Shown in pieces: positions 3,098-46,772 of a DNA stretch of 64,000 nucleotides. Positions within the stretch are counted from its first letter, which is position 1. Every line of letters starts with the position of its first letter. The stretch covers positions 32,001 through 96,000 of the IMG/VR virus record IMGVR_UViG_3300043570_000570. One strand, 5' to 3'. The position numbers were made by a program, and so were the translations under genes. Below the pieces are notes generated by a model. That model ran no database searches. It was not told the origin of the DNA and was given only the letters and a program-made list of their open reading frames with translations. Source of the stretch: a virus.

Positions 3098-5307
3098 TTT
3101 TTTACTTTTGATTTAGCTAAGAATGAAGTTAGGTCATACTTTACTTTTTCTCTATCGAACTGTTTTGATAGTTGGTTAGCCAACTTTAATCTGTTGGGTT
3201 TACTTTCTACTCTACGAAGAATACTTGCTACTCCGTTAACCATGTCTTTATCATCACTGTGGTCTATCTTGCCTCCTCTTTCATAAGTACTAAAAGGTAA
3301 ATACTTACTAAATGAAGAAGCATTTTTTTGACCTTCTGATTGATCCTTTATATAATCAATAGCTTTTTTTTGGTCTGGAAATAAACTAGTTTTTCCTCGA
3401 CCTAAAAAAGTATTCTCTCCCTGACGTAGTTGATTTACTCTATTTGCATTTAATATACCTTCTGATGTATTATACATAAAAGGAGCAGTAGACATAGTGT
3501 TGTAATCCATTTCTGTTAGTTTACCTGTCCGCATCCTATCAATAGCACCATCTCCCAAAACACTAGCAAATTCTTGATCGGTTAATTTACCTTTTCCCAT
3601 ACTCATAATTCGTGCTTCCTCTGGCATACCCTCCGCAAACTGTTGTTTCATTTTATACTCAGGAAGGCGATCTCGCATCATTCTTACAGGCTCTACTTCA
3701 CCTTTAAAATAATTTTTAGTTACAAATCCTTCTCCCTGAGGAGTCTTTAAATTGTTCACGTAAAATTCAGAACCACGTAAATCATCTAATGCCCATCTAC
3801 CTGTAAGATCATTAGGTGTTGCTGCTTTATTAAAGTTTGCATGTTCTGTTCTATATACATTTTTATAAGTAGGCAGTGCAGGTTTACCTGCAATTTTAGA
3901 AGTTTGTACTACATCGTCAGCATATTTAGAAACTCCCTTGAGTATCGAACTACCAAAAGGTTTAATTGCTTTAGCAGCTGGTATAACTTGAAGTGCATTC
4001 ATACCAGCATTTAACAAATCGCTCCCGGCTTCAGCAAAATTACCTTGTGCAACATTAGATACAGCAGATCCTGTATTGCCTACTAAATCAGTTGCTGCAA
4101 ATGCAAGTGAAGCAGGATTAACCATATCTAATACATGGTCTAATGGATCAGCAGAACCTTTACGTTGTTCTGCCTGAGATACAAAGGAAGTAGCTTCTCT
4201 AGCTTTTTCATAATCAGATTTAACTTTACCTTGAGTAACACTACCAACTTTCCTTGCATACTGAGCAGCTTCTGCTGCTTTTCTATTAGCTAAGTCAGGA
4301 GTACTTACTTTAGTGTTATCACTATAGCCAGCATTACCTGCAGGACTAGTTCTCATGTAAGGTTTATCAACAATAGGAGTCCAGCCAGACCATCCTCCAT
4401 TATCCATCCGTGTAAGTGGGTAAGTAGGAGTGTTTTGTTGCACTTTAAAAGGTCCTGCAGTAGGCAAATCATTAGGACTGAAAGAGTAAACATTACCTGA
4501 AGGATCCATAGCATGTGAGTATCCTGCAGCTTTATCCCCCCTAATAGCCATGCTAGCAGTTGGATGATCCATAGCTTTTAACATTTTTCCAGTTTGAGGA
4601 TGTCTAGAATATGCATGATATAACCCATCATCTTCCTTAAGTTGAGAATAATCAAAACCAATAGGTCTTTTTAATGAATCCCAATATCCTCTTATGTCAT
4701 ACTGAGAAGTATCACTTTGTAAATTAGAAGGAAGAGTTTTATAAAATTTTTGAAATTCTGTTTCTTCTTTAGGAGTTAAAGAAGTTAATCCTCCATTAGG
4801 CATTATGGGTCTATTAGGATTAGGTCTCATAACCACTTGAGCATTGTCCCTTTGAGGAACTCTCATAGTATTATTATTGTTAACACTAAACTCGTTAACT
4901 GTACCTGCTACTCTTGTAATAGGTTTTATTGTATTGTTAACTCTATTAACTGTTCTGCTAGCTTGAGCAGCACCTATAGCTAAATTACTATAAGGTCTAA
5001 TTCGATTTGCTACTCTAGCTACTCCCATTAATCCTTTAGCAGTTCCTCCTGTTACTATATTTAAAGCGTCTAATCCTGCTCCCATGTAATCACCTTGAGC
5101 AATATTGGATGCAGCACTAGCACCTGAAGCATACATACCTATAGGCCCAGGAATATAACTAGCTGCTTCTACAGCCATACCGAATCCTGTACTTCCCCCA
5201 TTAGGCATCTTACGCTTCTTAGAATTCTTATATGCACCCTTAAGTCTTGAACCTGTAGGTGCATTAGAATTTGCAATTATAGAACCGTTAACCCCTGGGA
5301 CAAACAT
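3094..5307 (-). CDS. Modular virion cargo protein with pre-toxin(TG)-like helical segments
   Basis: 737 aa; modules separated by MPNGG/MDNGG/YERGG; two IPG..AS..A..NxAQGx(Y/F)..AG.D.LN segments. Confidence 0.5.
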   Translation of the reverse strand: MFVPGVNGSIIANSNAPTGSRLKGAYKNSKKRKMPNGGSTGFGMAVEAASYIPGPIGMYASGASAASNIAQGDYMGAGLDALNIVTGGTAKGLMGVARVANRIRPYSNLAIGAAQASRTVNRVNNTIKPITRVAGTVNEFSVNNNNTMRVPQRDNAQVVMRPNPNRPIMPNGGLTSLTPKEETEFQKFYKTLPSNLQSDTSQYDIRGYWDSLKRPIGFDYSQLKEDDGLYHAYSRHPQTGKMLKAMDHPTASMAIRGDKAAGYSHAMDPSGNVYSFSPNDLPTAGPFKVQQNTPTYPLTRMDNGGWSGWTPIVDKPYMRTSPAGNAGYSDNTKVSTPDLANRKAAEAAQYARKVGSVTQGKVKSDYEKAREATSFVSQAEQRKGSADPLDHVLDMVNPASLAFAATDLVGNTGSAVSNVAQGNFAEAGSDLLNAGMNALQVIPAAKAIKPFGSSILKGVSKYADDVVQTSKIAGKPALPTYKNVYRTEHANFNKAATPNDLTGRWALDDLRGSEFYVNNLKTPQGEGFVTKNYFKGEVEPVRMMRDRLPEYKMKQQFAEGMPEEARIMSMGKGKLTDQEFASVLGDGAIDRMRTGKLTEMDYNTMSTAPFMYNTSEGILNANRVNQLRQGENTFLGRGKTSLFPDQKKAIDYIKDQSEGQKNASSFSKYLPFSTYERGGKIDHSDDKDMVNGVASILRRVESKPNRLKLANQLSKQFDREKVKYDLTSFLAKSKVKK

Positions 5308-37760: not shown

Positions 37761-38225
37761 TTACTTAATTTTACTTAGTTTGTGTATTTGTTCTACAGCG
37801 TTTGCCTGTAACCAAGGCTCTGGGGTTGGTAGTTTGTTTATAAAACTTAACTCGTATATGTAGCACTTAAGTTCTTCTTCTTCTAGACTCTGAGTTACTG
37901 GATGTAACAAATAGTTTAAGTGAAGACTCTCATGTACTAGAACGCAAGCTAAGTTGGCTATTGAGTTCATCTTTGCATCTCCTACGGCTATGTAAATAGT
38001 GTTTCCGTCTTGAGAGATGTTATTAGAAGAATAGGGACTAATCCAAAAGTCTACTATGTCGCAGACATCTATTAATCTAATGTATACATTGACATCTGTT
38101 TGAGCAATTAATGCTAAGGCTGAGTCTACCTTTAAATCCCAACCATCCCCTGCCTTCATCACTTTAATCTGAGAAAAGCAGGGAATAGAAAGAATTAGAA
38201 AAAGACTAATTAGTACAGATTTCAT
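37761..38225 (-). CDS. Secreted zincin-like metallopeptidase
   Basis: Signal peptide; VLVHESLH...EEELKCY. Confidence 0.6.
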   Translation of the reverse strand: MKSVLISLFLILSIPCFSQIKVMKAGDGWDLKVDSALALIAQTDVNVYIRLIDVCDIVDFWISPYSSNNISQDGNTIYIAVGDAKMNSIANLACVLVHESLHLNYLLHPVTQSLEEEELKCYIYELSFINKLPTPEPWLQANAVEQIHKLSKIK

Positions 38226-38892
38226 AATCTTCTACTAGATAGATTCTTTTTGCTTTATGTTTTAATTTCTTACATTCTCTGATATTAGAAGCAGCCACTC
38301 CTACAAACTTTGCAGCTTCTTTAGAGTTTAAGAAGATGTGGGTTTCTCCTGTAATAGTGTTAGTTAACTTAAGATTTTTTTTACTATTAGAAATACTTTG
38401 TTTTATAAGATATTCTTCTGTCTGTAGTTTTCCTCCATAATTAGGATTGTTACTACCAGAAGAAGATTCTGATATCTTACTTAAAGACTCTGTAGAGTGT
38501 CTCTTTCCATAGAACGCATTGTTTATTCCTATAGCTTTTAAAGACATAAGTTGTTTTGTACCTAATGACAAAACTTTTTTCTTTTCATGCGTAGGGGTTA
38601 GATAACAGTTTAAACCATTCTCTACACTACAAAAGTGTTCTTGATAGTATCTTTCTCTTTCTAATAGATTTTCACTAGAACAAAATTCTAGTATTTCAAT
38701 CTTGTGTAAGTCAACACCATGCTTTACCAAAGAATTATAAATAGCTCTTTGTTTCTTAACTCTATTTGGGGTTAAGTAGTAACTACAACGTATACGCAAG
38801 TTAACAGCCTCACCTACATAGATTTTGCCTGTAGGAGAAGTTATCTTGTATATACCTGAGGTACTAGGAAACCCCAAAATAGAATCATGCAT
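38206..38892 (-). CDS. GIY-YIG homing endonuclease with NUMOD3/NUMOD1-like motifs
   Basis: GIYKITSPTGKIYVGEA..LRIR; FYGKRHSTES; NPNYG; FLNSKEAAKFVG. Confidence 0.85.
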   Translation of the reverse strand: MHDSILGFPSTSGIYKITSPTGKIYVGEAVNLRIRCSYYLTPNRVKKQRAIYNSLVKHGVDLHKIEILEFCSSENLLERERYYQEHFCSVENGLNCYLTPTHEKKKVLSLGTKQLMSLKAIGINNAFYGKRHSTESLSKISESSSGSNNPNYGGKLQTEEYLIKQSISNSKKNLKLTNTITGETHIFLNSKEAAKFVGVAASNIRECKKLKHKAKRIYLVEDYEICTN

Positions 38893-39493: not shown

Positions 39494-39742
39494 TTAATCT
39501 TCGCTAGGTGCTTCTGGCTTCTTCATAATCTTCTCAACAGAAGTCAAACCTAAACAACCAAAAGCCAACAAAGCAACTGCATCCACCAAAGGAACAGAAG
39601 GAGCAAAGTGAGCTTCGGTAAAAGAGTTAGCGTACAATGTAGCGCATAGTGTAACTGTGCATGCTAATCCGCACAATCGTTTCATGGAGACAACACCCTT
39701 CTCATCTTTGAAGAGTCCGCCAATAAAGTTTAATAGTTTCAT
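39494..39742 (-). CDS. Holin-like two-TM protein
   Basis: SMKRLCG + two TM helices + LGLTSVEK; next to endolysin. Confidence 0.55.
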   Translation of the reverse strand: MKLLNFIGGLFKDEKGVVSMKRLCGLACTVTLCATLYANSFTEAHFAPSVPLVDAVALLAFGCLGLTSVEKIMKKPEAPSED

Positions 39743-40736: not shown

Positions 40737-40811
40737 TTACACCAAAAGAAAGGTCAGCATAATGACTGACGCAATTATCAAAGCGATCCAACTACGACCG
40801 CTTAGTTTCAC
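40737..40811 (-). pseudogene. 24-codon remnant of a histidine-kinase N-terminus
   Basis: MKLSGRSWIALIIASVIMLTFLLV* vs kinase N-terminus MKLSIRSKVSVVIASVIMLAYL (45274-46476). Confidence 0.65.
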
Positions 40812-41149
40812 AAAGTGATGATTTCTACCTGTGTTGGATAAATCAAATCCAAAGCATTGAATACTGCGTTCACCAAAAGCACTTCGGCTGATTTGGTTTC
40901 GTAATCCGCAACACTCAACTCCAACCCTGAGAAAGTAGTGTTAAAATCCTCAATCCCTTGAATCGGTGCTTTGCCTTCTGCCAATGCTTGTACACTTGCA
41001 AAAACAAATGTTGCGATTTGGGCGGGGATGATTCCGTCTTTTTGACTTTTTACATCTGCGTAACCTTCTGCGATTACAACGATTGAACCCGATGGGATTG
41101 ATAAACCGCTTGTAAGGTTTACGCTTGTATTGATTTGAATTGCTTTCAT
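40808..41149 (-). CDS. Fibre-associated hypothetical protein
   Basis: Directly downstream of the fibre gene, same atypical codon usage. Confidence 0.55.
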   Translation of the reverse strand: MKAIQINTSVNLTSGLSIPSGSIVVIAEGYADVKSQKDGIIPAQIATFVFASVQALAEGKAPIQGIEDFNTTFSGLELSVADYETKSAEVLLVNAVFNALDLIYPTQVEIITL

Positions 41150-43370: not shown

Positions 43371-43476
43371 TAGTAGAGATCAATACGTATTATTACAAAG
43401 ATATAAAAATGCAAAATAAAGTCAAGGGAAGTGCATAGATGGGTAGCAGAAGATAGTAACTCTTACTACTATGATC

Positions 43477-44052
43477 TTACTTCTGAAACCTCAGATAATC
43501 TGTAGTACCTGGATCTTCGTTCTTGAAATAATAGACTTCCTTTACTTTACCGTACTTGATAGTCTTTAAAAATCCATCAGGGATAGTAGCTCCTGTTGGT
43601 AATCTTAAGCTAGTTTTAGAGTAGACCATCTTGATCTCTACCTCAACACTCTGACTCTTAGAAAGCTCTCTTTCTCTTACTTCTAATAGTCTCCAAGCTC
43701 CTCTGTTTAACTTCTCGTGCTGAAGAACACAGTTAAGGTAAGAAAAGGTTTGCCATAAGGTAGGTCTATCACAGTTAAAATCAGCTGCTGGAGCACAATG
43801 TCCCTTATCCCATACATTTCCTTCATAGTCTTTTCCGTCTGAAGTCTTAATAGAGTCGTTAGTGTAGAAGTCCATTCCCTTTCTAGGATAAGAACCCAAG
43901 GGACATTGGACAATGTACCAAACTCGCTTAGGCTGTTGTAAGATCTCTGAGTAAACACAAGAGTATATAGGAGTCTTTACAAAGACAGAGTCTCTCTGAG
44001 AGTAACTAGTACCTAGTACTAGAAAACTTAAAATAAAAAGTAATTGTTTCAT
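43477..44052 (-). CDS. Secreted DNA/RNA non-specific endonuclease (NucA/EndoG family)
   Basis: Signal peptide; WDKGHCAPAADF...TFSYLNCVLQ...LNRGAWRLLE. Confidence 0.85.
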   Translation of the reverse strand: MKQLLFILSFLVLGTSYSQRDSVFVKTPIYSCVYSEILQQPKRVWYIVQCPLGSYPRKGMDFYTNDSIKTSDGKDYEGNVWDKGHCAPAADFNCDRPTLWQTFSYLNCVLQHEKLNRGAWRLLEVRERELSKSQSVEVEIKMVYSKTSLRLPTGATIPDGFLKTIKYGKVKEVYYFKNEDPGTTDYLRFQK

Positions 44053-44079: not shown

Positions 44080-44247
44080 TTAATTAAAAGTGTTTCTGTC
44101 TTTCTTAGCAAACGCTTGATCTATAAAAAAAGTTAGACCAAACATAATAATAATAGTCATTGCTGCATTAAAGACGCTTACAACATACATCTCTGCTTCT
44201 TTAGAAGTTTCTACTACTGATAGTAACGTGGATAAAATTAGTGTCAT
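44080..44247 (-). CDS. 55-aa membrane peptide (not in track)
   Basis: MTLILSTLLSVVETSKEAEMYVVSVFNAAMTIIIMFGLTFFIDQAFAKKDRNTFN*; ATG overlaps the upstream stop. Confidence 0.45.
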   Translation of the reverse strand: MTLILSTLLSVVETSKEAEMYVVSVFNAAMTIIIMFGLTFFIDQAFAKKDRNTFN

Positions 44248-44828
44248 TTTTTTGAGTCTTTTGAATCTTTTGAATCTTTGGAGTCTTTTGAATCTGTCAT
44301 GTGTTTAACTCCCATTATTGTTCCGATAATAGAAAAACAGTTGGTTAGAATAATACCAAACATATTACTCCAGGTACTCTCGATGATCTTAGAGTCTAGT
44401 CCTCTGCTTAGTACGAAAAGATAAAGTACAGTAGTAAGTATACAAACAGCACCTACAGCTCCCAAAGCTACCTTTACTATCAAACCAATAAGCTCAAACT
44501 GGGTTTTTTTCTGAAGTGTTTCTAAATCATCAACTGCCAATTCTCTCAACTTCTCAGACTCAGACAAAGCCTGCTTTAGTTCAAGCATTAGTTTTTCTTT
44601 CTCTGCTTGGCTCTCTATTAGGTCTTTGTTCTGGGACTGTACTTGCTTAGTTACTTCTAGTCTTTTTCTACGAGTGTCTTGGTCTTTGGTCTTAGCCTCG
44701 TCTAAGTAGTCTTGAAAGTTTTTATCCTGAGTTTTTACTACCTTAAGTAAGTTTCCCTCTAATGCAATCTTCTTAGATTTGTAGAGGGAGACAAGAGAGC
44801 TTTCAATATCTTTACCAAAGGATATCAC
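44244..44828 (-). CDS. Coiled-coil plus two-TM membrane protein coupled to the response regulator
   Basis: GTG start abuts the regulator stop; heptad region, two TM helices, DSK x4 tail. Confidence 0.7.
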   Translation of the reverse strand: MISFGKDIESSLVSLYKSKKIALEGNLLKVVKTQDKNFQDYLDEAKTKDQDTRRKRLEVTKQVQSQNKDLIESQAEKEKLMLELKQALSESEKLRELAVDDLETLQKKTQFELIGLIVKVALGAVGAVCILTTVLYLFVLSRGLDSKIIESTWSNMFGIILTNCFSIIGTIMGVKHMTDSKDSKDSKDSKDSKK

Positions 44829-45266
44829 TTACTTATATACTTTAAAGGAAGCAGTTTTATTCTTATACCCCTCATAGTCCTTACGAAAAGATTCTAGTCT
44901 AGGTTCAATCTCATCTGACTTGATGATCCAGAACTGAGCACCTACAGCTTTTGCTTTTTCTATTTCTTGTTTATCATCAGAACTAGAAATAATCCCTATC
45001 ACCACTCCGTTGCCGTACTCAAAGTTAATCTTACGAATCAACTCTATGCCGTCAAAAGAAGAACCAATAATATTAAGGTCTACAAAAACGCATTCAGGTC
45101 TTTCATCTGCAGGTCCTTCAACAAACCATCTCTTAAACAATCTATCAGCTTCATCAGAAGAAGTTAGAGTTTGCAGAGAAAGAGTAATGTCTAATAAGCT
45201 ACAAGAATCCTCAAACACTAAGTGAAAAAGGTCTTCGTCATCTACGAGTAATATTGAGTCTATCAT
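44829..45266 (-). CDS. Single-domain response regulator (REC)
   Basis: ILLVDD, phosphoacceptor VFVDLN, DGIELIRKI, IISSS, WIIK. Confidence 0.9.
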   Translation of the reverse strand: MIDSILLVDDEDLFHLVFEDSCSLLDITLSLQTLTSSDEADRLFKRWFVEGPADERPECVFVDLNIIGSSFDGIELIRKINFEYGNGVVIGIISSSDDKQEIEKAKAVGAQFWIIKSDEIEPRLESFRKDYEGYKNKTASFKVYK

Positions 45267-45273
45267 ATTTTGT

Positions 45274-46476
45274 TTATTTTACTTTTATCTTAAGTTTAGT
45301 TCCTGTTTCTGGTTCTTCTAGTTTCTCAGCTGTTACTTCAAACTTATGTTCTTCCATAATAGCTGTACATATGTTTAACCCTAGTCCTGTACCTGCCTCT
45401 GTCTGACCTTCTTTCCTCTTATAAGGCTTAGACCACTGTACAAAATCTTCCTGAGACATTCCCCTTCCATTATCTTCAATAACTAAAAAATTCCCTTCAG
45501 CAAAAATACGTACTAACTTAGTGCTAGAGTCGTTATATTTTAAACCGTTTCTTATTAAATTATCAATCGCTGTACAGAACAAAGATTCGTTTACTTCAAT
45601 CTCAGGTAACTCTTCAATAACTACTTGCTTCTCGTAAGAAGTAGAAGATAGGTAGCTGTGTAGAATGTCTTTTAGATTGTGTTGCTGAACCTCTAAGTGA
45701 GCATCTTGCTTAACCAAGTTAGTAAACTCTTTAACTCCGTTATAAACCTTTTGAGTGTGAATCAATCCTTCTGTAATCATTCTTAGCGGAGCATCTATCT
45801 TTAACTCTTTAATCTGCTCTTCAGTCAGTCTTCTTTTTAAGGAAGAAAGTCCCCTAGGAATATAAGTGTTAATTCCTGAGTGCATATCATGTCTTAAAAT
45901 CTTAGCAGCATGTTCCAAATAGGAATTCTTTTTAGCAACCTCTGCCTCAATTCTCTTTTTCTCAGTAATCTCCGTAGCAATTAAAAGAATTTTATAAACC
46001 TCTCCGTAAGGATCTTTAATAGGATTGAAGTTTCCATAAAGCCAAGTATTGCCAAACTCATACTCTCCTTGCTTGAAATAGCCTATTCTTAAATGTGTCC
46101 AGAACTCTAACCAATCTCTCTTAGAAGAGTTGTCTAACTCCCTATGACTTTTAACCTCACCAAATATTCGCTTAAACCTGTCATTCATACTTAACACTTC
46201 TCCATAAGTATCAAACTCTACTAGTAAGTTAGAATTATTAATTGCTTTAAAAGTAGCATCTACACTCTGAAACTTATACCTAGCTCTCCTTACAAACTCT
46301 ATAGCAGGATAAAAGAAAAAAGGTAAAAACCCTACTATACACCAATACCCTACTAAATCCCGCTGGTAACTAGAATCTGTGTACTTGAAAACAATAGCAC
46401 TCTGAAAACTTAAATAAGCCAACATTATCACAGAAGCAATAACAACTGATACCTTAGACCTTATACTTAGTTTCAT
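45274..46476 (-). CDS. Membrane sensor histidine kinase with PAS-like domain
   Basis: Two N-terminal TM; PAS/PAC-like segment (VEFDTYGEV...NFNPIKDPYGEVYKIL..ATEITEKK); H-box LRHDM; N-box IDNLIRNGLKY; G1 EDNGRG; G2 GTGLGL. Confidence 0.9.
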   Translation of the reverse strand: MKLSIRSKVSVVIASVIMLAYLSFQSAIVFKYTDSSYQRDLVGYWCIVGFLPFFFYPAIEFVRRARYKFQSVDATFKAINNSNLLVEFDTYGEVLSMNDRFKRIFGEVKSHRELDNSSKRDWLEFWTHLRIGYFKQGEYEFGNTWLYGNFNPIKDPYGEVYKILLIATEITEKKRIEAEVAKKNSYLEHAAKILRHDMHSGINTYIPRGLSSLKRRLTEEQIKELKIDAPLRMITEGLIHTQKVYNGVKEFTNLVKQDAHLEVQQHNLKDILHSYLSSTSYEKQVVIEELPEIEVNESLFCTAIDNLIRNGLKYNDSSTKLVRIFAEGNFLVIEDNGRGMSQEDFVQWSKPYKRKEGQTEAGTGLGLNICTAIMEEHKFEVTAEKLEEPETGTKLKIKVK

Positions 46477-46499
46477 CTTTTAAAGTTAATTGGATGACA

Positions 46500-46528
46500 C
46501 AAATATAAGCTAACTTTAAATAAATCAA
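46500..46528 (-). promoter_or_regulatory. Promoter of the two-component operon
   Basis: CAAATATA 46500-46507, CAA 46526-46528. Confidence 0.55.
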
Positions 46529-46552: not shown

Positions 46553-46752
46553 CCCCAAAATTTTTAGACCCCCCATCCCAAAATTTCTCCCAAAATTTTT
46601 TCTAAAATTTTTAGACCCCTAAAATTTTTTATGTTCATAGGAGGGTGGGACCAAAATTTTATACCCCCGTCAACTTGATTATATCTATATGAGGGTGGGG
46701 GACACCAATTTAACATACCCCATCCCAAAATTGGCGCTAGGGGTACCCCCTA
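46553..46752. repeat. CCCAAAATTT / C- and G-run repeat tract at the strand switch
   Basis: Repeated (C)CAAAATTT units, AAAATTTTTAGACCCC twice, GAGGGTGGG twice, palindrome TAGGGGTACCCCCTA. Confidence 0.7.
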
Positions 46753-46772
46753 TAAAACGCTATAAAAAAAAT

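Follow-up and report, generated by a model that had tools for sequence, protein, structure and literature searches.

A phage-specific unit of sensor kinase, receiver and membrane hairpin protein that may control the time of host lysis

Introduction

The two-component systems CheA-CheY, directed at FliM, and DivJ/PleC-DivK, directed at DivL and CckA, combine a class I kinase core with a regulator that consists only of a receiver (REC) domain, has a full phosphorylation site and lacks a DNA-binding output. The target DivL, on which DivK acts, is itself kinase-like. A kinase/regulator pair is tied to holin-like membrane proteins in the LytSR system of Staphylococcus and Bacillus, which controls the holin-like and antiholin-like cidAB-lrgAB genes; LytR is a LytTR DNA-binding regulator acting on transcription. 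Class II holins, or pinholins, such as S21 of phage 21, have two transmembrane (TM) helices with both the N- and the C-terminus inside the cell.

The timing of lysis determines burst size and phage fitness. To our knowledge, lysis inhibition of the T4 type is the only well-understood control of lysis that depends on a signal. It involves the holin T and the antiholins RI and RIII (PMC11413866), and lysis inhibition has also been described in the Vibrio phage ICP1 (PMC7182436). In T4, superinfection is sensed by an antiholin domain in the periplasm, which binds the holin, without a kinase, a receiver or phosphorylation. A full-text search of the literature gave no publication describing, in phages, a holin-like protein coupled to a PAS domain or a kinase.

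The locus described here encodes a sensor kinase, a receiver and a coiled-coil protein ending in a two-helix membrane hairpin (the "hairpin protein"). Its kinase core and REC-only regulator resemble those of the CheY and DivK pathways, but the unit is almost missing from cellular genomes and the proposed target is found only in viruses. The unit showed no homology to FliM, DivL or CheZ. As in T4 and ICP1, the time of lysis would be set by a sensed signal, with membrane proteins acting post-translationally on hole formation; unlike T4, the sensors are cytoplasmic PAS or GAF domains, and gene neighbourhood is the sole basis on which a connection with lysis is inferred. It differs from the bacterial, transcriptional LytSR system in that the receiver has no output domain and its gene abuts that of the presumed target.

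Organization of the genes

The window, which is the whole stretch of 64,000 nucleotides analysed, is part of a 116,182-base (about 116 kb) virus record of a lake-water phage, rated 98% complete. It contains the terminase, portal and major head protein genes, showing that the phage context is real. The reading frames of the kinase, the receiver, the hairpin protein, a TM peptide and a nuclease are tightly packed on the minus strand (Table 1), where the original prediction had placed them.

Sigma-70-type promoters and intrinsic terminators are no more frequent in the window than in shuffled sequences. Because of this result for the promoters, a Bacteroidota-type motif was used instead, of which the window has 23 examples, the mean in shuffles being 7.4. 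A single such motif precedes the kinase gene, and the next one on the strand is found only after the nuclease, ahead of the genes for a 215-residue protein and a tail fibre, so that a five-gene unit is likely to end there. The spacing of the motifs is compatible with one transcript running from the kinase to the nuclease. The proposal that one promoter drives the kinase, receiver and hairpin genes can be retained in this limited form, as both motifs are matches to a consensus and nothing more.

The TM peptide and the secreted nuclease had been predicted to follow the other three genes. Both are present, and their co-transcription is predicted, but they are not members of the conserved unit because only about ten close relatives carry them.

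Table 1. Features of the locus and of the lysis gene candidates, with positions in the window
Feature	Position	Strand	Remarks
Promoter-like motif, Bacteroidota type, TTG-N19-TATATTTG	46500..46528	-	24 nt upstream of kinase start codon; consensus match only
Sensor histidine kinase, 400 aa	45274..46476	-	2 TM, shortened PAS, DHp, HATPase_c
Stand-alone receiver (REC), 145 aa	44829..45266	-	D9/D10, D63, S94-96, K116; conserved C-terminal extension 118-145
Coiled-coil, 2-TM hairpin protein, 194 aa	44244..44828	-	GTG start abuts receiver stop
Single-TM peptide, 55 aa	44080..44247	-	Start overlaps hairpin gene stop by 4 nt
Secreted DNA/RNA non-specific endonuclease, 191 aa	43477..44052	-	Endonuclease_NS E 1.5e-18; signal-like N-terminus; DKGH motif
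Next promoter-like motif, TTG-N19-TATCTTTG	43396..43425	-	3' of nuclease, ahead of 215-aa and tail-fibre genes
Holin candidate, 82 aa, 2-TM	39494..39742	-	Directly upstream of endolysin candidate; 4.5 kb downstream of hairpin gene
Probable endolysin, 185 aa	38894..39451	-	phrog_3000 at 8e-28; weak match to endolysin phrog_33083

The sensor kinase and the receiver

The HATPase_c domain of the kinase is recognized by Pfam with an E-value of 1e-12 (48.9 bits, cut-off 26.4), and the DHp-CA region aligns to solved class I kinases such as CpxA, 8f71 and HK853, with the H-box region on the DHp of 8f71, 3dge and 2c2a; the Pfam HisKA model gave no score. The catalytic motifs read from the sequence are an H-box, RHDMHSGIN, containing H196, an N-box with N310, a G1 box, D335-x-G-x-G339, and a G2 box, G362-x-G-x-G366. 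The H-box with its histidine is invariant in 71 kinase homologues and the other three motifs are conserved. In the same set the DHp-CA core is nearly invariant and the sensor part is variable.

Hydrophobic segments span residues 11-29 and 41-59 of the kinase, and there is no long external loop. They are followed by a shortened PAS domain at about residues 76-178. Pfam makes no PAS call on this kinase; the domain is seen through its match to the Pfam-verified PAS domains of P0175, one of the fused proteins described below (E 8e-12). The kinase thus has all the parts originally attributed to it, namely the TM segments, the PAS domain and intact H, N, G1 and G2 boxes. The sensors of related kinases are PAS, PAS-PAS or GAF-PAS, and many of the partner kinases in related loci are soluble, with PAS or GAF domains but no TM segments.

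The best matches of the P0175 PAS among solved structures are 3ewk (E 3e-8), 2gj3 (4e-5) and 8dik (1e-4), that is, redox sensors with a flavin-binding PAS domain (MmoS, NifL and Aer). The PAS of the window kinase is homologous to that of P0175, but it is about 20 residues shorter where the alignment meets the flavin-pocket segment and is undetected by Pfam, and there are no data on cofactor binding. Light sensing by a LOV-type domain was considered and dropped because the NCRFL motif is missing from all of 56 kinase homologues.

The receiver scores 29.9 bits against the Pfam Response_reg model, just below the gathering score of 30.2, and a PF00072 match is precomputed for nearly all of its close homologues. 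Among solved structures its closest relative is the response regulator 3ilh (E 2.6e-4), with whose DD, D and SSS its sites align. These residues (D9, D10, D63 and S94-96), together with K116, are invariant across 29 diverse homologues, in agreement with the original description of an intact REC protein. REC is the only domain in its 145 residues, which likewise bears out the predicted absence of a DNA-binding output. Transcriptional control of the LytSR/LrgAB type was rejected, as there is no LytTR domain.

The hairpin protein

The expected coiled coil and pair of TM segments were found in the product of the GTG-initiated gene that begins at the receiver stop. An N-domain (residues 1-35) is followed by a conserved basic helix, RRKRLE-TKQVQ, a coiled coil of variable length, TM1 (residues 113-131), a loop, TM2 (within residues 153-175, the predicted segment being 156-174) and a tail rich in Ser, Lys and Asp. 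TM2 is near-invariant and has a face of polar and small residues. In the AF2 model (pLDDT 79.5) residues 36-142 form a single helix, after which the chain makes the hairpin turn. Judging from the distribution of charge along the sequence, both ends of the protein are probably cytoplasmic.

The loop between the TM segments has only about 12-20 residues, so that, unlike the T4 antiholins, the protein has no periplasmic domain; nor did Pfam or PHROG give a match indicating similarity to RI or RIII. It has no match to any Pfam, PHROG or PADLOC family or to a described holin family. A Foldseek search of the PDB with the model found nothing at E ≤ 0.001, a long helical hairpin being a poor query. 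A profile search for the family returned 260 representative clusters, which form a closed family, and the Atlas clusters of the protein are 100% viral.

With S21-type holins the hairpin protein shares the two TM helices, the probable cytoplasmic ends, one helix rich in Gly, Ser and Thr, and a gene that often lies beside endolysins. It differs from them by the 110-residue cytoplasmic N-domain and coiled coil in front of the TM pair and by the lack of a holin family match, and hole formation by it is inferred.

Conservation and distribution of the unit

About 100 viral loci have the kinase, receiver and hairpin genes in colinear order whenever the contig extends far enough. No other families are common to the 53 loci that measure 9 kb or more (the three are present in 53, 53 and 52 of them, respectively), and no flanking family occurs in more than 12. 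A receiver accompanies the hairpin gene in 78 of 80 metagenome loci, the other two ending at a contig edge. The flanks differ between loci and the position of the cassette shifts among the genomes of close relatives.

That the kinase and the receiver come from universal bacterial families would suit an ordinary bacterial two-component operon, recently acquired as a passenger and without a role specific to the phage. This explanation is close to refuted. When 185,579 species genomes were searched with invariant receiver peptides, the trio came up on no more than two MAG contigs, of 13.5 and 36 kb, where nothing but the trio matched reading frames of the window, as against thousands of viral and metagenomic copies. 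Moreover, the hairpin family, like its Atlas clusters, is confined to viruses, and the best solved relative of the receiver scores only E 2.6e-4. A recent bacterial operon absent from other phages would have overturned the original prediction; the survey showed instead a colinear unit in varied phage backgrounds, near-absent from bacterial genomes. The best explanation of these comparisons is that the kinase, the receiver and the hairpin protein, without the TM peptide and the nuclease, make up one phage-specific signalling unit.

Kinase-regulator pairs had been called rare in phages. This is correct for cultured phages: the receiver and the hairpin protein have no match in INPHARED, where the matches of the kinase and of P0175 were merely of a generic PAS or HATPase kind, in unannotated records. 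It does not hold for uncultured phages, in which the kinase/receiver/hairpin type is very common. In metagenomes the receiver alone accounts for 3,864 clusters at 90% identity, and the copy of the window phage recurs in lake water, in 16 or more independent runs. There is no cultured phage with the module and no biochemical or genetic evidence on it, which weighs against the reading proposed below.

Domain exchanges and the direction of the signal

Related proteins occur in which the domains are joined differently. P0175 and P0181 consist of PAS(-PAS), coiled coil and hairpin, and P0156 of GAF, coiled coil and hairpin. The P0175 type was found in 253 viral stretches, and in none of the 80 loci fetched is there a receiver. 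The PAS of this type is homologous to residues 76-178 of the window kinase. Conversely, in P0246, P0253, P0256 and P0270 the N-domain and coiled coil of the hairpin protein are placed on a DHp-HATPase core. One such gene follows a kinase and a receiver, in the slot of the hairpin gene (locus L188). This form is rare: P0246 has no relative among viral contigs, and a scan of metagenomes gave the single locus L188, of 1 kb. Its arrangement is reminiscent of DivK and DivL. The exchanges suggest that the N-domain is the input of the hairpin protein and the hairpin its output, which is what we propose; binding of the receiver to the N-domain is inferred.

The signal might also run in the other direction, the hairpin protein regulating the kinase, as its membrane anchor or as a co-sensor, in the manner of LiaF or YycH/YycI, while the receiver acts elsewhere, for example on a conserved host protein, or serves as a phosphate sink. 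The many soluble partner kinases could need a membrane tether. Across loci the receiver is 68-94% identical, compared with 44-80% for the kinase and 39-94% for the hairpin protein, and a receiver conserved so far above the hairpin protein could have another conserved partner, perhaps in the host. However, in the fused PAS/GAF forms the coiled coil and hairpin do without any kinase or receiver, 80 of 80 loci having no receiver, and a kinase core bearing the N-domain can take the place of the hairpin gene behind the receiver, as expected for an input module. Furthermore, the TM and sensor part is the least conserved region of the kinase and TM2 the most conserved region of the hairpin protein, which argues against a conserved contact between their membrane helices. 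We regard an upstream hairpin protein as unlikely.

A direct contact between the receiver and the hairpin protein receives only weak support from complex prediction, which leaves some room for the upstream alternative. The predicted complex of the receiver with residues 1-112 scored 0.47, whereas the best of three controls scored 0.02. Of the solved complexes, 58 of 80 attain the mark applied, as do 2 of 110 mismatched pairs, but at scores up to 0.60 only 7 of the 80 solved complexes passed, and both of the passing mismatches fall there. Contacts agree in full (100%) between the runs, and the pLDDT of the partner is at least 86. A search for longer forms of the receiver gave just kinase-receiver fusions among close relatives (P0271-P0273) and no fusion of receiver and hairpin protein. 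The kinase-receiver fusions, and the near-invariance of both the DHp-CA core and the receiver, favour a pairing of these two proteins.

Proposed mechanism

With the hairpin protein taken as the output, a cue from the cytoplasm or the membrane would reach the kinase by way of its PAS-type sensor, which is most like flavin-binding redox sensors and whose ligand is unknown. The kinase would then phosphorylate itself at H196, and the phosphate would be transferred to D63 of the receiver; both reactions are inferred, with only indirect support from the strict gene linkage and the kinase-receiver fusions. The phosphorylated receiver is presumed to bind the N-domain or the basic helix of the hairpin protein, from where the signal would pass down the coiled coil, presumably a dimer, to the two membrane helices. 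TM2, with its invariant face of polar and small residues, may be the working output, either forming or gating a holin-like lesion or modulating the holin of the phage; such action in the membrane is likewise inferred. The process controlled would most likely be the timing of host lysis. We consider such a phosphorelay, leading from the kinase through the receiver to the hairpin protein and controlling a membrane event, somewhat more probable than the other readings taken together.

If this is true, a receiver acting on a coiled-coil hairpin would be a new class of output for two-component signalling. A virus-specific phosphorelay ending in a membrane protein would then be widespread, and it would be common for phages in the environment to bring a sensory circuit of their own to a late decision at the membrane. 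With its small parts and its one-gene and three-gene versions, the system is compact and can be tested. A wider statement, that many uncultured aquatic phages time lysis by the internal state of the cell, probably redox or energy, through flavin-type PAS/GAF sensors, phosphorylation, a receiver and a new holin-like hairpin, in one-protein and three-protein versions, is tentative and may well prove wrong; if it holds, it would give the first example of a viral lysis switch gated by phosphorylation.

Relation to lysis genes

A recognized endolysin lies no more than three genes away in 28 of 34 non-redundant loci of the fused forms and in 10 of 39 trio loci; with holin-like candidates included, the latter number becomes 16 of 39. 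The neighbouring endolysins belong to five catalytic types (GH19, Phage_lysozyme, Amidase_2, Peptidase_M15_3 and phrog_3000). In the other 23 trio loci no recognized lysis gene is found within three genes, and some trios adjoin a metallophosphatase, DnaK or tRNA-synthetase-like gene. The loci come from related phages, so that these counts are not independent events, and they have no proper null from whole genomes.

As the trio is fixed in many uncultured phages and often lies beside lysis genes, it probably makes lysis, or some other membrane event late in infection, responsive to a signal that the phage senses, although there are no bench data. The original idea of a post-translational output at the membrane through the adjoining two-TM protein, possibly for lysis timing, is supported by the linkage of the trio, the receiver-free fusions of sensor and hairpin, the N-domain exchange and the endolysin neighbours, all of which is comparative evidence. 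Lysis timing set by a signal is the best reading. For the window phage itself it remains an inference, since the frequent endolysin neighbours belong to related loci and the trio of the window is about ten genes (4.5 kb) away from its holin and endolysin candidates.

The trio loci that lie away from lysis genes are many, the cassette moves within genomes, and a sensor with a small TM effector is a common arrangement in defence systems, including those that mobile elements carry. These features would suit a conflict module, in which a sensed signal makes the hairpin protein depolarize the membrane and thus excludes superinfecting or competing phages or aborts the infection. However, none of 5,027 PADLOC models matched, at E ≤ 0.01, the kinase, the receiver, the hairpin protein, the TM peptide, the nuclease or three forms with exchanged domains, the fused type included. 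The fused forms strongly neighbour endolysins, and the trio is a stable unit across very diverse large phages rather than patchy like defence islands. A function in conflict between phages therefore appears improbable to us, and control of lysis remains preferred.

Measured against the usual characteristics of a holin, the hairpin protein gives a mixed picture: it has two TM helices, and an endolysin lies within three genes of it in some loci, but here the distance is about ten genes, and with 194 residues, 110 of them cytoplasmic, it is not small. It speaks against the lysis reading that the phage encodes an ordinary candidate holin already, the 82-residue protein. This protein has no match in the libraries searched, and members of its family are found beside endolysins or beside the trio in other loci. 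In one locus (L040) the phrog_3000 domain of the probable endolysin is fused to PG_binding_1, and that gene lies directly 3' of the hairpin gene.

Gene organization

The kinase, the stand-alone receiver and the 194-residue membrane protein (the "hairpin" protein) are encoded at the head of a leftward operon, adjoining the divergent early/late region of the window, and are followed by a small TM peptide and a nuclease. The kinase and receiver genes are separated by 7 nt, the receiver stop codon abuts the hairpin start without a gap, as originally noted, the hairpin and TM peptide genes overlap by 4 nt, and the nuclease gene begins after a further 27 nt. Upstream of the kinase, a promoter motif of Bacteroidota type, TTG-N19-TATATTTG, ends 24 nt before the start, and the next motif of this type on the minus strand is located beyond the nuclease.

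Genes of the five-gene array (window positions)
Feature	Length (aa)	Position	Strand	Basis
Kinase	400	45274-46476	minus	ORF call
Receiver	145	44829-45266	minus	ORF call
Membrane (hairpin) protein	194	44244-44828	minus	ORF call
TM peptide	55	44080-44247	minus	ORF call
Nuclease	191	43477-44052	minus	ORF call

The source virus record comprises 116,182 bases and is rated 98% complete. The large terminase, portal and major head protein are all encoded in the window, and the stretch recurs, nearly identical, in at least 19 lake-water metagenome runs (2020-2024), including three possible source runs. The promoter motif is over-represented in the window, which has 23 copies where shuffled sequences average 7.4, and the nearest cultured-phage match of the nuclease is from a Flavobacterium phage. 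The host is inferred from these two features to belong to the Bacteroidota.

The intergenic stretch at 46554-46760, which separates the kinase operon from the first gene read rightward (46689), contains three exact copies of AAATTTTGGG (46554, 46577 and 46589; 0.17 expected by chance), and several degenerate copies (AAATTTTAG, AATTTTGGGATGGGG) extend to about 46760. The repeats could be a binding site in multiple copies, as part of the divergent early/late control region.

Distribution of the three-gene unit

Viral contigs were scanned with both the kinase and the membrane protein, giving 105 loci. The three genes are colinear (tblastn) in all those whose contigs reach far enough. Upon clustering of all ORFs from the 53 loci that span 9 kb or more, three ORF families were found in 53, 53 and 52 of the loci, and every flanking family in 12 or fewer. 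The receiver also adjoins the membrane-protein gene in 78 of 80 further metagenome loci, the remaining two being cut at the contig end. The TM peptide and nuclease are confined to about 10 close relatives. The conserved unit is the colinear trio, without these two genes.

A search of cultured phages identified none with the receiver or membrane protein. The original prediction would have been refuted if the trio were a bacterial operon of recent origin that other phages lack. However, invariant receiver peptides were matched on just two contigs from MAGs (13.5 and 36 kb) among 185,579 species genomes, and this alternative is therefore not upheld.

The unit is rated here as a two-component relay whose membrane output is new and confined to viruses, and in which phosphotransfer, receiver binding and membrane action are inferred. 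A full-text literature search found no published description of the module. Its mechanism would resemble that of single-domain receiver pathways (CheY, DivK), and its biology lysis inhibition in T4 and ICP1 (PMC11413866, PMC7182436). Membership tests did not support its assignment to holins, antiholins, LytSR-type systems or known defence systems.

Kinase and receiver

The kinase scores on HATPase_c, and its DHp and CA domains align to class I kinases of solved structure. Among 71 homologues there is almost no variation in the DHp-CA core, which includes RHDMHSGIN (with H196) and the N, G1 and G2 boxes, confirming that the catalytic boxes are intact; residues 1-180 are variable. There are two closely spaced hydrophobic segments, followed by a shortened PAS domain (residues 76-178) that is missed by Pfam but matches verified PAS domains with an E-value of 8e-12. 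Partner kinases across the loci are 293 to 743 residues long and have GAF-PAS-PAS, GAF-PAS, PAS-PAS or TM-PAS sensors, or none; some loci have two kinases. In a fused form of the membrane protein, in which the sensor is joined to the coiled coil and hairpin, the PAS domains have flavin-binding PAS sensors (MmoS, NifL and Aer) as best solved-structure matches, suggesting, by homology alone, redox or energy sensing in relatives. The window PAS is about 20 residues short in the aligned pocket region and its ligand is therefore left undetermined. The LOV motif is absent from the kinase homologues.

The receiver scores 29.9 bits, just under the Pfam cut-off of 30.2, and aligns with the response regulator 3ilh. 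Residues D9, D10, D63, S94-96 and K116 are retained in 29 of 29 diverse homologues, in agreement with the predicted intact phosphorylation site residues (DD/D/S/K). The receiver is the most conserved member of the trio, with 68-94% identity across loci (tblastn); the kinase has 44-80% and the membrane protein 39-94%. Its family comprises 3,864 clusters at 90% identity in a large protein collection.

Membrane hairpin protein

The hairpin protein belongs to no Pfam, PHROG or PADLOC family. In a profile search its own family is closed, with 260 representative clusters; the corresponding Atlas clusters are 100% viral. The AF2 model (pLDDT 79.5) consists of a small N-domain, a single helix (residues 36-142) ending as TM1, a tight turn and TM2. 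Four regions are conserved: the N-domain with its LEGN motif, a basic helix (RRKRLE-TKQVQ-QN), the lead-in to TM1 (DL-LQKKTQFEL), and the nearly invariant TM2 with an Asn/Thr/Ser/Gly face. The coiled coil differs in length, so that the homologues range from 178 to 229 residues. Lysines before TM1 and after TM2, together with the short loop between them, indicate that both ends of the TM pair are probably cytoplasmic. The invariant small and polar face of TM2 would be appropriate for a helix that lines a pore or packs tightly, as seen in two-TM holins.

Domain exchanges and signal path

Profile matches to the membrane protein include two kinds of shuffled protein. In the first, a cytoplasmic sensor occupies the position of the N-domain, giving PAS(-PAS)-coiled coil-hairpin (P0175, P0181) or GAF-coiled coil-hairpin (P0156) proteins. 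The P0175 type is common (253 viral stretches); its PAS domains are homologous to that of the window kinase, and the receiver is absent from all 80 loci fetched. In the second (P0246, P0253, P0256 and P0270), the N-domain, basic helix and coiled coil are fused to a DHp-HATPase core. In one locus (L188) such a gene follows the kinase and receiver, exactly in the slot of the membrane-protein gene. Kinase-receiver fusion proteins also exist.

The simplest reading of these swaps, which are known from sequence only, is that the hairpin is an output that can be driven by a cytoplasmic sensor through the coiled coil. The N-domain would be the input that substitutes for the fused sensor when the sensor resides on a separate kinase, and the receiver would carry the signal from that kinase to the N-domain. 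The complex prediction that had been proposed as a check, for the receiver with hairpin residues 1-112, scored 0.47, against 0.02 for the best control. Of 80 solved complexes, 58 reached the mark used, as did 2 of 110 mismatched pairs; only 7 of the 80 complexes, and both of the passing mismatches, did so at scores of 0.60 or less. The contacts agree 100% among runs and the partner pLDDT is at least 86. The predicted pairing thus has weak support only.

Lysis genes near the module

Lysis genes of various kinds often adjoin the module. Beside the fused form there is PG_binding_1 with GH19, or Phage_lysozyme. In trio loci, PG_binding_1 with phrog_3000, GH19, Amidase_2, Phage_lysozyme or Peptidase_M15_3 immediately precedes the kinase or follows the membrane-protein gene. 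A recognised endolysin is at most three genes away in 28 of the 34 non-redundant loci with the fused form and in 10 of the 39 trio loci, the latter number rising to 16 if holin-like candidates are included. Random genes in a phage of about 150 genes would give a few percent, although this is a rough estimate that does not come from a calculated null, and the loci are related to each other. A 139-residue protein directly upstream in the closest relatives has weak holin matches in two libraries. The hairpin protein itself has no homology to any holin. In the window, an 82-residue holin candidate and a phrog_3000 endolysin candidate are situated 4.5 kb downstream of the trio, past the tail-fibre cassette.

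In many trio loci the adjoining genes are others, such as those for DnaK, a metallophosphatase or a tRNA-synthetase-like protein. On large phage contigs of 106-322 kb (L093:5117-7000; L097-L103, downstream of the trio), a metallophosphatase, a tRNA-synthetase-like protein of class II and a full-length Hsp70/DnaK (E 5e-261) are encoded near the trio.

Mobility and insertions

In the closest relatives (kinase 77-80% identical) the five-gene cassette is located between a holin-like gene pair and a 93-residue gene near a tail fibre. The same site in the window's genome is occupied by a 444-residue ORF (113901-115235, genome coordinates), and the kinase cassette is 40 kb away. The 113-residue gene after the tail fibre (window 40808-41149) is found directly upstream of the kinase in two other loci (L017:4900-5238 and L020:5639-6001; 88-96% identity).

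Homing-endonuclease or unknown genes interrupt the trio without breaking up the set, between kinase and receiver in locus L093 and between receiver and membrane protein in loci L029, L031 and L074. The L093 endonuclease (3144-3863) is related to a GIY-YIG/NUMOD3 homing-endonuclease gene at window 38206-38892 (minus strand), directly downstream of the endolysin candidate. The insert in the other three loci is a 165-residue gene (L029:7679-8179) without a Pfam or PHROG match, which may be an extra relay component.

The ends of the whole record, G000 (1-820 and 115250-116182, outside the window), have about 700 bp in common at only 84-92% identity. Each carries a holin-like 139-residue gene, a 105-residue gene with an N-terminal TM segment and a secreted 119-129-residue gene. 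The appearance is that of a circle closed imperfectly or of a mixture of strains, rather than of an exact terminal repeat.
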